DNA of 64,000 nucleotides from Bryobacterales bacterium (GTDB lineage: Bacteria > Acidobacteriota > Terriglobia > Bryobacterales > Bryobacteraceae): contig PNAJ01000148.1 in NCBI GenBank assembly GCA_003170295.1, positions 3,946-67,945 of the forward strand, in the 5' to 3' direction. Numbering within the stretch: the first letter of the stretch is position 1; every line of letters starts with the position of its first letter. Below are positions 14,122 to 25,061 of this stretch, one piece after another. The notes below the pieces were generated by a model, which was not told the origin of the DNA, ran no database searches, and saw only the letters and a list, made by a program, of their open reading frames with translations. A program made the translations under genes and the position numbers.

Positions 14122-14196
14122 GCGGGAGTAATTCAGTGGTAGAATGCCAGCTTCCCAAGCTGGACGTCGCCGGTTCGACCCCGGTCTCCCGCTCCA
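14122..14196 (+). tRNA. tRNA-Gly (anticodon CCC), encoded CCA
   Basis: Manual cloverleaf: acceptor GCGGGAG/CTCCCGC, D arm ATTC/GAAT, anticodon stem CCAGC/GCTGG with loop TTCCCAA, T arm GCCGG-TTCGACC-CCGGT, discriminator T, then CCA. Confidence 0.9.
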
Positions 14197-14261
14197 TCTT
14201 TTCAATCACTTGGGGATAAAAGCCCACGATCTGTCACTCCAGTCACTCCATTAGGCAGCCA

Positions 14262-14480
14262 GCACTTCAGATTCGAGTTTTCCAACCGCCTCTGAACGCT
14301 GCCGCAAATCCGACTTCGTATAAACATCTAAGCGGACCCCAAGGCTGTGGCCCAACTGATCGGCCACCACCTTTGGATCGATGCCAGCCCTCCTTAGAAA
14401 GGCTCGCATGGGTCCGGCGCATCACTTGAAAATTTGCCCACTCTAACCGTTGCGCTTCGGCAATCTGGTGGAGTGTCATC
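14262..14480 (-). pseudogene. Tyrosine recombinase/integrase, C-terminal remnant (frameshifted)
   Basis: The minus strand reads ..VMRRTHASL.. in one frame, then AGIDPKVVADQLGHSLGVRLDVYTKS..* in another. This is the R-H-..-Y catalytic tail of phage-type integrases. No intact N-terminal part is present. Confidence 0.6.
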
Positions 14481-14790
14481 CTGGCAGCAACTGCGTCATG
14501 TTCGGATGAATGCCCATGGAAGCAGAGGCTGCCAAGTTGATCCCACATGTGCGCTTGAACGTGTCCTGGGCTACGCCTTGGCCGTTGTCGTACTTCACTC
14601 CCAGGTTGAAGCATGCTGGTTCAGAGCCCTGGTCGGCGGTGCGGATGGTGGAACTGGCTTCATATCTGCGATAGCGTTTGAAACTGAGTCGATTCGCCAG
14701 TTTTGACCGAGTTCTCATTCACCTGCATTTTCAGTGTTGATGTTGTCGTCGAAACTGGTATGCGATTTCACATCTGCTCTTAACCCCGCG

Positions 14791-15966
14791 TCAGTCTGGC
14801 GACCGGACGGATGCCTCGGCGGTCTGAAGGTCGAGGCCCACGCGCTCGCCGTTGATCAGGACGACGCTCGCGTCCAGCAATTGTTGCCCGGTGAGGTCGA
14901 ATTGCGCGTAACTGCGCAGAGCGCTCAAAGGAAATATGAATTCCACTGCCTCGCCGCCTTCCGCATTGGCGCCTGCCATGCGAACACTGGTGCTGAAATC
15001 AATTCCGCTGAAGTCGACGCTGTCTTTGAAGTAGGCGAGAACAGGGCGGACCAGGTGCGCGACGTGACGATCGAACGCCAGCGCGGCCAGCTTGTATTGC
15101 GATCCGGCATCGGATGCCGCGAGAGTCGTCGCGATCGGGATCTCCAGATATTGGCCGCCGCGAAACGCAATGAAAGATGGGGGAGCATAGGGCACGAAGT
15201 GCGCCTGTTGATCGAGATCCTTCAGCATCCTGGCCAGCGCATCGCGATAGTCGGATACCGGCTTCGATTCCGTTTCCAACTTCGCAGGCGCGCTGGGGAA
15301 CCGCGGTTCCGGTTTGGCGGACACCACGGACACCGGTATCGCCTGACCATCTTGTCGCTCGAAAGGCAAGAACGAAATCGGAGTGCGATTGAGGTATGCG
15401 GTTCCCTCCTGCACTGCGGCGGCGCGCCCGGCTTCATCGCGAGCCTCCACCAGGCGCTGCGCCGATGCCTTTGGCAGGATCAGGACGACATTTTCCGCCG
15501 ATTCCGTCTCGACCCCCAATACCTTCCTGATCACGTGGTGGGATATTTCAAGTGCGAACGCTTCCGGAACGTCGGCCCGCGCGAGGGCGGGTGCGGCGGC
15601 CTGCAGGATCGGCAGCATGACGTCGCGAAACGTTTGGCGCGTCCGTTCCTCCTTGCTCATCCGCTCGGCCGAATAAGCCGCGAAGTAATTCCCGGTGATC
15701 TTGAGAACCGTCTGTCCTTGATATTTATCGAATTGAATCGAGCGCTGATCGCTGCGCTCCTGCTCCCGCTCAGTCAGGTCCAGTTTGCGGCTGAAGTAGA
15801 AATGATACGGAAACTCGTGTTTGCCGAGCGCCGCGGTAATCGCGTGCAACTCCTCCAGATGGCTCTGCTGCAATGCGCGGATCGAGGGGTCCGCGATCTC
15901 GGCCGGCGATAACACTTGCCCGGTCGCTTGCCAAGCCAGAATCGCGAAAAGGCTAAGGATTCGCAT
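14791..15966 (-). CDS. Secreted hypothetical protein, last gene of the respiratory operon
   Basis: Signal peptide MRILSLFAILAWQATGQ. 14-nt overlap with the upstream gene. No recognisable cofactor motif. Confidence 0.6.
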   Translation of the reverse strand: MRILSLFAILAWQATGQVLSPAEIADPSIRALQQSHLEELHAITAALGKHEFPYHFYFSRKLDLTEREQERSDQRSIQFDKYQGQTVLKITGNYFAAYSAERMSKEERTRQTFRDVMLPILQAAAPALARADVPEAFALEISHHVIRKVLGVETESAENVVLILPKASAQRLVEARDEAGRAAAVQEGTAYLNRTPISFLPFERQDGQAIPVSVVSAKPEPRFPSAPAKLETESKPVSDYRDALARMLKDLDQQAHFVPYAPPSFIAFRGGQYLEIPIATTLAASDAGSQYKLAALAFDRHVAHLVRPVLAYFKDSVDFSGIDFSTSVRMAGANAEGGEAVEFIFPLSALRSYAQFDLTGQQLLDASVVLINGERVGLDLQTAEASVRSPD

Positions 15967-23140: not shown

Positions 23141-23148
23141 AGGTCCTT

Positions 23149-24759
23149 TCAGTACACAAATTCGAGCGCGAACAACACCGTGTTCACGCGAAACGGGTTC
23201 GCTGCTAACGGGTTTCCGTTGGGAAGGCTCGCCAGAGTCACAAACTGCCGCGGCCGGATCTGGTATTCCATGGAAACCTTGATGTTCGGGTGAATCAGGA
23301 ACTGCACGCCGGGAGTAAATCGGTTCCGGCTTGAATTGTAGGGCGCGAAATAGGACGTGTTCGTCGCAAAATCCAGACCGTTAATACGATCCGCGGTCGA
23401 GTTCACCTGATCCCAGCGCATGATCGCCATCAGCCAAGGCTTCATCAGATAATCGGCCTGCATAAAGCCTCCATTAAAGGTGGCCGGAACGCCGCGCGAA
23501 AACCCCGCAGTGGTCGTGGTGGTCGGATCGATAGGCAAAGGGATCGGCGCGCCCGTCGCATCCACCGGCAGCATGTTCGAATCGTGCCCCACCATATATA
23601 GCCCGTAGAGATTGAACGTCCTGTAGTTGAAGCTGAAATCTCCGCCTGCGCGGTAATACGGCTCCCGGTTGTTGAAGAACGTGTTAGCCGTCGCGGGAAC
23701 CGTTTCGAGCGAGTTCCCGTGCAAATAGAAGGTCCCGAGGTTCAAATAGGTGTGATCGTGAGGACCCGTCGCACCGGCCGCTTGGATGTCTTTCCGAATC
23801 TTGGGATCGCTCTCCAGATTGAAGCGGTAAGACGCACGCGCATAGACGTTCTTGATGCCTGAATCGGAGCTGAACCCCACTCCGCCGCCCGCACTTGCCG
23901 TCGCCGATGGAACAAACGGAAACTGATTCGATCCCTGAGAGACTCCAGTAGTGTTTTGATCGAAAATCGCTACCGAATAGTGGTATCCGCTGTAGGTATG
24001 ACCGCCACTCAACTCAAAGCCTCGCGCCGCGTTGGCCAAAGCAGACTGATTCGCCACGTTTTGCTGCCTTGCTCCGATGTTGGCTTGCTGATAAATGTCG
24101 TAGGGACTGAGGTTTATCCCTCGCGCCTGCGTGAACGGCAGGTCCAGCTCGAACTGCCCCGCGCGGAGAGAAAGCAGGTCGTTCGGCAACTTCAGCAGGC
24201 GTCCGACGTTGACGAATTTCAGGTAGGCGTCTCCCAATCCACCGTTACTGTTGTTGCCGGAGACGCTGAGATCGTCGTCCACCCAGAATGCGATGTCGCT
24301 TCCGAAATTTCCAGCTGTAAAAATGCTGAAAAGTCCGGCTTGAAAATCCGTTGCTGGTATCACTCCCGGGACTGTGCCTGGAGCCGTTAAGGTGTCGAAC
24401 CGGTTCCGGTTCGACGTCACTTGAAAGAACTGGTTGTAGCGCAGTCCTATGGGAGGCATACCCGGCATGGTCCCCGGCCACACCGAATTGGGAAACGATT
24501 CTTTGTTCGCCGGAGCCCCCAGCATCACCGGCGCTTCCTTAAGGAAGGTATCGTCGTCGGTTGGAAACTTGAAACCCGCGTCTTTAAAGGCTTTACCGAA
24601 ATCGTTCAGCTTCGGAAAATCCATGTGGCATGTCTGGCAGGACGTCTGATACTTCCGCGCAAACGGCGGAATTGCGTAACTCTTCGACGAAGAGAGTAAT
24701 ACGAGCATCGCGGCCGCTGCCGCCACACTCGGAACAAACGTTCGGACAAACCTGAACAC
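23149..24759 (-). CDS. Outer-membrane beta-barrel protein with N-terminal monohaem c motif (Cyc2-like fused cytochrome-porin candidate)
   Basis: Signal peptide ending SYA. Mature N-terminus IPPFARKYQTSCQTCH. About 480 aa of alternating beta-strand-like sequence rich in G/Y/N/F. C-terminal ALEFVY has a terminal aromatic. GGAGG lies 5 nt before the GTG at 24759. Confidence 0.7.
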   Translation of the reverse strand: MFRFVRTFVPSVAAAAAMLVLLSSSKSYAIPPFARKYQTSCQTCHMDFPKLNDFGKAFKDAGFKFPTDDDTFLKEAPVMLGAPANKESFPNSVWPGTMPGMPPIGLRYNQFFQVTSNRNRFDTLTAPGTVPGVIPATDFQAGLFSIFTAGNFGSDIAFWVDDDLSVSGNNSNGGLGDAYLKFVNVGRLLKLPNDLLSLRAGQFELDLPFTQARGINLSPYDIYQQANIGARQQNVANQSALANAARGFELSGGHTYSGYHYSVAIFDQNTTGVSQGSNQFPFVPSATASAGGGVGFSSDSGIKNVYARASYRFNLESDPKIRKDIQAAGATGPHDHTYLNLGTFYLHGNSLETVPATANTFFNNREPYYRAGGDFSFNYRTFNLYGLYMVGHDSNMLPVDATGAPIPLPIDPTTTTTAGFSRGVPATFNGGFMQADYLMKPWLMAIMRWDQVNSTADRINGLDFATNTSYFAPYNSSRNRFTPGVQFLIHPNIKVSMEYQIRPRQFVTLASLPNGNPLAANPFRVNTVLFALEFVY

Positions 24760-25020
24760 AGTCACCTCCACTTAGCTTTGGGGACTGCATCGCACTTGGA
24801 TGGCCTTTGCACAAATGCCCCTGTTTTTAAGGTTGGCGCAGGGAGACGCCCGCGCGATATCGCACAGCGTGCGTCAGATGACGCCATATAATGACCAAAT
24901 AATGCCGAAAAAGTGGCTTGATGGAGCCTTAAATGACCATATCTCGGCCACGTGCTGGTCCTGCCGCGATTGAGCCAACCTGCGGGCCTGGACTCGACCT
25001 CGACAATCACCTTCTGTACT

Positions 25021-25061
25021 GCTGGACGTCGCCGGTTCAAACTCGGTTTCCCGCTCCATCT
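25021..25061 (+). other. Partial tRNA-Gly 3' half (attR-like direct repeat)
   Basis: GCTGGACGTCGCCGGTTCaAaCtCGGTtTCCCGCTCCATCT compared with tRNA positions 14159-14199. No matching 5' half lies upstream. Confidence 0.7.

Follow-up and report, generated by a model that had tools for sequence, protein, structure and literature searches.

In the current analysis we have examined a window of 64,000 nucleotides (nt) from a Bryobacterales bacterium, an acidobacterium of soil that is uncultured (assembly GCA_003170295.1, contig PNAJ01000148.1, positions 3,946 to 67,945 of the forward strand), in which an operon of nine genes for a putative Rieske/cytochrome b complex is bracketed by an intact tRNA-Gly(CCC) gene and a displaced copy of the 3' half of the same tRNA. 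The bracketed interval, 14197-25020, also carries the stump of an integrase gene beside the tRNA and has the anatomy of an element integrated into a tRNA gene (tDNA). Positions refer to the window unless preceded by the name of another locus, such as L192.

The intact tRNA-Gly(CCC), which is the only tRNA detected by ARAGORN in the window, is situated at 14122-14196 on the plus strand and represents the regenerated target. A copy of its 3' part is present downstream in the same orientation, at 25021-25061 on the plus strand, and is identical at 37 of 41 positions to 14159-14199. The two copies are referred to here as the attachment sites attR and attL, respectively. The start of the repeat coincides exactly with that of the anticodon-stem 3' strand, its end lies 3 nt beyond the tRNA, and no similarity to the tRNA 5' half was found in the sequence upstream of the 25021-25061 copy. 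These features, when re-aligned, proved to be as the preliminary description of this DNA had reported them. The probability of such a match by chance is negligible (about 1e-13 by our estimate), and the pair is by far the longest direct repeat within 13.9-25.4 kb. The 18-nt core of the repeat occurs at only two sites in the 64 kb, even with up to 3 mismatches allowed, so that the match is not a dispersed repeat, a possibility that had been raised earlier. Of the four differences between attL and attR, three are transitions (C>T or G>A), the kind of change expected in a copy free of selection.

Next to the tRNA, on the minus strand at approximately 14251-14480, lies the C-terminal stump of a tyrosine integrase of about 75 residues, with one frameshift and with its stop codon towards the tRNA 3' end. 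It is read in two frames (..LEWANFQVMRRTHASLSKE and AGIDPKVVADQLGHSLGVRLDVYTKSDLRQRSEAVGKLESEVLAA, the latter running to the stop codon) and retains the catalytic R, H and Y motifs. The frameshifted C-terminus seen earlier is therefore real; its open reading frame (ORF) does not stop after YTKS, as had been stated, and continues for 19 residues more. The repaired 75-residue stump aligns with the Pfam family PF00589 over positions 114-169 of 172 (E = 0.0012, 19.1 bits), below the gathering score of 27.1, and no second integrase was found within 14197-25020. Between the tRNA and the integrase stop are two tandem copies of the 9-mer GTCACTCCA (14233-14250), which are possibly arm-type binding sites of the integrase. 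In L113 and L192 comparable tandem repeats are found at the corresponding position (CTGGGGTAGAA twice in L192), and in L190 one such repeat unit is followed by the contig end. No copies of the GTCACTCCA 9-mer are present near attR, and its count across the window is that expected by chance. Further from the tRNA is a possible Sel1-repeat fragment (ACFNLGVKYDNGQGVAQD, 14560-14616, minus strand) within an ORF of 80 residues at 14476-14718. The Sel1-like match had been noticed before and is present, at a weak score (PF08238, E = 0.075) that is below threshold, and a homologue of the fragment was not found in any of the fetched loci. Promoter and terminator scans of both ends of the island found none.

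The architecture is common to contigs of the same species from several soil and peat metagenomes and from the metagenome-assembled genome (MAG) GCA_003134575.1. The full span of the debris is covered by 6 of these contigs and the full span of the repeats by 12, all at 100% identity to the window, as are 3 of the 4 partial matches. Such identity indicates that the structure is fixed in the population and rules out an assembly artefact. The exception, L018, is 98.1% identical over 540 nt to window positions 14263-14800, which belong to the debris, with 6 mismatches and 4 gap openings, and may reflect strain variation in the remains of the integrase or of Sel1.

Homologues of the integrase stump number 142 in the database, and all of them are of 55-120 residues; a remnant at 92% identity is found in P0241, a Logan contig. 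A domesticated mini-protein was considered and rejected, since L190 carries a longer homologous pseudogene (PF00589, E = 2.7e-13) of which the gene caller took the last 73 codons only, the truncation points vary between loci and the window copy is frameshifted. Comparison of the integrase remnants gives values of 0.69-0.88 for synonymous (pS) and 0.14-0.35 for non-synonymous (pN) divergence. Saturated synonymous change together with modest non-synonymous change shows that the remnants diverged under purifying selection, while still functional, and so derive from separate integrations of related elements; a single ancient fossil common to all the species is rejected on the same grounds.

An intact member of this integrase family is encoded in L192, the IMG/VR contig IMGVR_UViG_3300010400_000391. 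This contig, of a temperate acidobacterial phage, carries genes for a terminase (E = 3e-215), a portal protein (E = 1e-118), a head protease and tail proteins, and is the only locus in which PHROGs hallmark genes were seen. Its integrase of 380 residues has C-terminal motifs in common with the stump (LGWVNFHVMRRTH..DPKVVADQ.GH..VY) and is about 47% identical to the L190 pseudogene over 171 residues. Matches in the reference phage collection are at 24-27% identity only, and no named family can therefore be assigned to it. At a distance of 75 nt past the integrase stop, on the opposite strand, is a tRNA-Gly(CCC) 3' half (44 nt, 97.7%), and short repeats of the CTGGGGTAGAA type lie on either side (L192:4312-5700). 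This arrangement is a phage attachment site (attP) with the exact geometry of the window attL, the integrase C-terminus being directed towards the tRNA 3' end with tandem repeats between, and it looks like a ready-made combination of attP and integrase for tRNA-Gly(CCC). The phage differs from the window in having terminase, portal, protease and tail genes where the interval of the window has a respiratory operon.

An integrase stump is paired with a tRNA 3' end in L113 and L191 as well, and the family is linked in all three loci, L192, L113 and L191, to the same att sequence. L191 contains a tandem array at the tRNA-Gly site (L191:10001-16295), with a stump abutting katG and with tRNA-Gly 3' halves at 10615-10656 and 14617-14659; the array includes ParDE, AEP primase-like and DEAD-helicase cargo and a full integrase of 503 residues.

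The tRNA of the window follows h79, a conserved gene of 79 residues with weak similarity to DUF3553 (13846-14085, plus strand), and this position is a recurrent integration hotspot in related Bryobacteraceae. The DNA downstream of h79 is different in every close relative. In L113 an intact tRNA-Gly(CCC) follows h79, and in L110, L169 and L176 the same tRNA is present with a contig break within its 3' half. In L105 (L105:13840-13869), L129 (L129:1703-1735), L114 (L114:14916-14952) and L166 (L166:1778-1809) the tRNA is reduced to its 5' 30-37 nt, cut at or beside the anticodon loop. This fragment comes immediately after h79 in L129 and L166; in L105 and L114 it is about 3.6 kb and 4.7 kb downstream of h79, respectively. 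Foreign DNA comes after the fragment in all four loci, opening with an integrase gene in L105 and L129; one type of element is common to L105 and L129 and another to L114 and L166. These four loci look like islands of a class that leaves the 5' fragment of the tRNA behind. In many other relatives there is no tRNA at the h79 position. The integration scar recognised in the preliminary description is borne out by the regenerated tRNA, the stump pointing to its 3' end and the displaced 3' half, together with the hotspot and the L192 attP.

The Islander method of Hudson, Lau and Williams (2015, PMC4383910) identifies islands by an intact tDNA and a cognate displaced fragment with an integrase gene between them; the tDNA is regenerated on integration, and the displaced fragment marks the far end. 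Class A islands, with an attP centred on the anticodon, are the commoner kind (2083 of 3919 islands; PMC4383910). The window has the intact tRNA and the downstream 3' fragment in the same orientation, and resembles these islands also in the tyrosine integrase beside the tRNA and in the start of the repeat beside the anticodon loop. It differs from them in that its integrase is a frameshifted stump of about 75 codons, scoring below the PF00589 gathering score, and for this reason would not pass the Islander integrase filter. It is also unlike them in having as cargo a single housekeeping-type respiratory operon of native composition for which no empty site is known.

Apart from the debris, the interval between the repeats is made up of nine intact genes, all of them on the minus strand (14791-24771), and the region upstream of them, in agreement with the earlier account. 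Gene 1 (23149-24771) encodes a protein of 540 residues with no Pfam family, which is called at 491-536 residues in public records, and gene 2 (22574-23140) a cupredoxin-like protein with a CarboxypepD_reg domain. Gene 3 (20649-22568) encodes a GltD-like NAD(P)/FAD oxidoreductase of 639 residues with 4Fe-4S domains (PF07992, PF14691, PF00037). It is followed by genes for a Rieske 2Fe-2S protein (gene 4, 20150-20638, PF00355), a b6-like cytochrome b (gene 5, 19408-20145, PF00033, E = 5.8e-45) and a cytochrome b C-terminal or subunit IV-like protein (gene 6, 18711-19415, PF00032). Gene 7 (16669-18843) encodes a multihaem cytochrome c of 681-724 residues and gene 8 (15953-16816) a protein with a Big_1 domain and a mono-haem cytochrome c (239 residues in public contigs); the cytochrome c domains of the operon (PF13442/PF00034) form three stretches each in adjacent genes. 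Gene 9 (14791-15966), for a protein of 391 residues with no Pfam family, is the last gene of the operon in most related loci. No phage structural or packaging genes were found in the interval, and Pfam gives only respiratory domains in the nine genes. A scan of viral contigs for cytochrome b gave one distant match (48%, L193).

The 240 nt upstream of the operon (24782-25020) are unique, with no homology in any related operon locus, and a sigma-70-like promoter was not found in them. At the nucleotide level, homology to the closest operons does not reach beyond the coding boundaries (14786-24781, the upstream end falling at 24694-24781). These limits have not been counted towards the ends of the element, because non-coding DNA is unrecognisable at about 80% coding identity.

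By their Pfam assignments, a Rieske protein, a split b6-like cytochrome b, a multihaem cytochrome c and an NAD(P) oxidoreductase are encoded in adjacent genes, and the operon products are predicted to form a quinol-oxidising Rieske/cytochrome b complex that exchanges electrons with NAD(P). Rieske/cytochrome b complexes with an NAD(P) oxidoreductase and multihaem cytochromes are described in anammox bacteria (Kustd1480-1485 and Kuste4569-4574; PMC12954380). The likeness to these complexes, at the level of Pfam domains only, covers the Rieske protein, the putative NAD(P) oxidoreductase subunit, the b6-like cytochrome b with its subunit IV-like partner and the use of a multihaem cytochrome c instead of cytochrome f. 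The present operon differs in its acidobacterial host, in its additional cupredoxin-like and Big_1 cytochrome c subunits and in its two proteins without a known family, and a hydroxylamine-oxidoreductase-like octahaem protein was not identified in it.

Species-representative genomes were scanned with the 639-residue subunit, which detected 373 relatives, and 80 acidobacterial loci were examined. Most of the 80 loci, across Bryobacterales and Terriglobales, preserve the order of the nine genes; in one group of Terriglobales gene 9 is missing and gene 1 is a variant. None of the 80 other loci has the flanking genes of the window, and flanks are common to a single pair among the eight closest species, which are at 78-81% nt identity. 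The operon is a conserved but unanchored unit.

Two other loci carry the operon between direct repeats. L092, the Acidobacteriaceae MAG MFD02248.bin.1.150, has an eight-gene form of the operon between an intact tRNA-SeC and a 71-nt, 97% identical copy of the 3' part of that tRNA (L092:7244-7313 and L092:17141-17239), in the same geometry as in the window, and no integrase remnants were detected in this island by fragment hidden Markov models or phmmer. A shorter motif (GGAAC..GTTTTTATCA) is repeated just inside both ends of the L092 island. In L032, the complete acidobacterial chromosome MFD10007.bin.c.1, the operon is situated between direct repeats of 55, 148 and 231 nt that are 89-98% identical (L032:6395-7173 and L032:18052-18524) and consist of an internal piece of argJ, an intergenic region and an RHH (CopG-like) gene. 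This locus looks like the integration of a circular DNA by a single crossover of the Campbell type. With tRNA-Gly(CCC) in the window, tRNA-SeC in L092 and argJ-RHH in L032, there are three cases of target duplication around the operon. We suggest tentatively, as a possibility with the odds against it, that the operon is a self-contained mobile respiratory module of Acidobacteriota that has repeatedly been picked up by integrative elements or circular intermediates and re-inserted with duplication of the target. Such mobility would explain a conserved gene order whose flanks almost never match.

The DNA on the two sides of the element belongs to blocks that are conserved in related Bryobacteraceae. 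The left block, A, has the order Metallophos-HNH-PRT-KsgA-h187-ECF sigma-...-h79 and ends with h79, whose orthologues in many Bryobacteraceae contigs are 79-97% identical, with 95-97% in contigs P0122-P0124. Downstream of the ECF-sigma end of the block h79 is found in 31 of 85 related loci, of which 11 have the entire block. A longer form of h79, an ORF of 103 residues at 13774-14085, was discarded: exact look-up gave no record of it, because its GTG start is probably wrong, and the recorded gene is the form of 79 residues. The S8 subtilase encoded between the ECF sigma gene and h79 (10704-13601) is variable, being 55-71% identical in some relatives and replaced in others by a BlaI/BlaR-like pair (Penicillinase_R and Peptidase_M56).

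The right block, B, has the order h186-S10 peptidase-TPR-h197-cydBA and is also conserved in relatives. Its first gene, h186 (25085-25645, minus strand), has its stop codon 24 nt from attR. In three relatives (L102, L103 and the P0002 contig) h186 is followed by Cupin-GFO/IDH-amidohydrolase-cmk-aspartokinase genes, a block that was sought in the window and is absent from it, and in L100 by a response regulator. No tRNA or tRNA fragment was found beside h186 in the relatives with readable DNA, the P0002 contig being available as gene calls only. In L194, the closest h186 relative (92%, from JGI 3300062768), the contig ends 27 nt past the stop codon; these nucleotides already differ from the window, and the stretch is too short to show presence or absence of attR. 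The cytochrome bd oxidase genes cydAB of block B (29291-31636) place two respiratory modules less than 7 kb apart, and in relatives cydAB has the same position in the block without the Rieske/cytochrome b operon. An overlapping pair of genes for HU-like and TIR-domain proteins is located about 8 kb upstream of the operon (33016-33752), and L034 has a 49-50% identical pair about 7 kb upstream of its operon, with unrelated genes intervening.

The operon adjoins neither block A nor block B in any relative, and both blocks are conserved without it; the junction with the operon is therefore found only in this species. Over the same divergence as that of the operon, the two blocks hold their gene order across 5-7 genes. 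The locus is a synteny break on both sides.

We consider the most probable reading, at roughly 0.55, to be that 14197-25020 is the interior of a defunct tDNA-integrated element, or of all that survives from a short tandem array of such elements, and that the operon inside it was delivered from a close relative or from within the same genome. The element would have integrated into tRNA-Gly(CCC), at an attachment site of anticodon-loop type. Its left end is a canonical attL, with the regenerated tRNA, the tandem pair of 9-mers and roughly the final 75 codons of the integrase, and its right end is an attR formed by the displaced 3' half of the chromosomal tRNA. The operon would have arrived with or inside the element, either as the cargo of an island or by aberrant excision of a prophage adjoining it, as in specialised transduction. 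It would have come from a related lineage of Bryobacteraceae, or from elsewhere in the same genome, and not from a distant donor, and the element would then have been immobilised by loss of the integrase, leaving the operon fixed since no integrase is left. Carriage of the operon as cargo and this order of events are plausible inferences, and relocation within the clade or the genome fits the data at least as well as import.

A number of observations weigh against an operon-bearing element. The composition of the operon is indistinguishable from that of the flanks and lacks the deviation by which islands are classically recognised: the GC content is 0.599 in the operon and 0.592 in the flanks, the GC content at third codon positions (GC3) is 0.735 against 0.697, with flank genes ranging over 0.625-0.754, and the tetranucleotide distance of the operon falls at the 62nd-65th percentile of 10-kb windows. 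The operon is as distant from its nearest homologues as the flanks are from theirs, the eight best matches being 86-89% identical in the 639-residue subunit at the amino acid level and 78-81% at the nucleotide level overall, compared with 77-82% nt for block A and 75-78% nt for block B. An empty site, with block A, the tRNA and block B in succession, was not found in any relative sampled, and the two blocks are never adjacent; as other genes come after h79 and h186, no model can do without at least one additional rearrangement. Identity in attR starts at tRNA position 39, compared with 30-31 in L192 and L191. The integrase relatives are borne by phages, yet the interval has no phage, transfer or excision gene. 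At the operon loci of other species the signs of mobility are sparse, with a tRNA gene within the fetched 10-kb flanks in only 6 of 80 and with integrase-like ORFs no more than 10 kb away in only about 9 of 80. The preliminary description had gone further and regarded the whole module as horizontally acquired cargo, naming a compositional difference of 14.2-25.1 kb from its flanks and an empty tRNA-Gly site in related genomes among the checks. The native composition, the homologues in close relatives and the failure to find such a site leave that claim undemonstrated.

The operon might instead have been inherited vertically and placed by a later rearrangement between the scars of a phage or other element that had integrated at tRNA-Gly and decayed, an alternative that we regard as a serious though less probable one, with about half the weight of the preceding reading. 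The broken synteny on both sides accords with it, as neither the adjacency of blocks A and B nor that of operon and block B occurs in any relative. So do the native-looking composition and divergence of the operon and the missing signature of mobile elements at most of its loci in other species; moreover, the intact relative of the integrase is a phage gene, and a phage is not expected to carry a respiratory operon of 10 kb. A simple inversion or deletion, however, cannot put a block of 10 kb between attL and attR with both kept in direct orientation, and there is no transposase or insertion sequence scar beside the operon. The interval bounded by the repeats contains the operon and debris only, and the independent case at tRNA-SeC in L092 has equal geometry.

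Import of the operon from a phylogenetically distant donor is very unlikely, and no sign of it is seen. It would agree with the island-like anatomy and with the lack of flanks in common with other species, and with these only, whereas the eight best operon matches are all from Bryobacteraceae, Bryobacterales, Solibacteraceae or unclassified Terriglobia MAGs, labels that agree with those of the h79 and h186 hits. Identity declines with taxonomic distance, to 71-75% in Terriglobales, and GC, GC3 and k-mer profile are as in the flanks. Phylogenetic incongruence of the cargo was not seen in a coarse test from the taxonomy of the nearest homologues and the depth of identity. That the 41-nt match is a dispersed repeat, a chance similarity or a tRNA pseudogene of local duplication, with no relation to integration, is scarcely credible, having nothing but the four mismatches in its favour against a repeat that is limited to two copies in the window and is the longest of its region, starts at the anticodon stem near the anticodon-loop boundary where the 3'-half fragments of L191 and of the L192 attP begin, and has an integrase stump at its partner end.

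Elements bounded by att sites and lacking an integrase are known, for example the cis-mobilisable elements (CIMEs) of streptococci. The window resembles CIMEs in having direct att repeats around a cargo with no working integrase, and L092 has no integrase trace at all. The window differs in keeping an integrase stump, a feature that suggests decay and not an element non-autonomous by design. As a case of island decay the locus is ordinary and well preserved, of a familiar kind and with no new mechanism.

The analysis identifies the hotspot formed by tRNA-Gly(CCC) and the gene of 79 residues, and an acidobacterial family of phage integrases with a recognisable attP. The pairing of integrase and att site could serve as a basis for genetic tools, of which there are few for this phylum. 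If the operon did arrive as the cargo of an island, a whole quinol-oxidising complex can move as a unit between soil Acidobacteriota, and this would help to account for the scattered occurrence of respiratory traits in uncultured members of Bryobacteraceae and Terriglobales.

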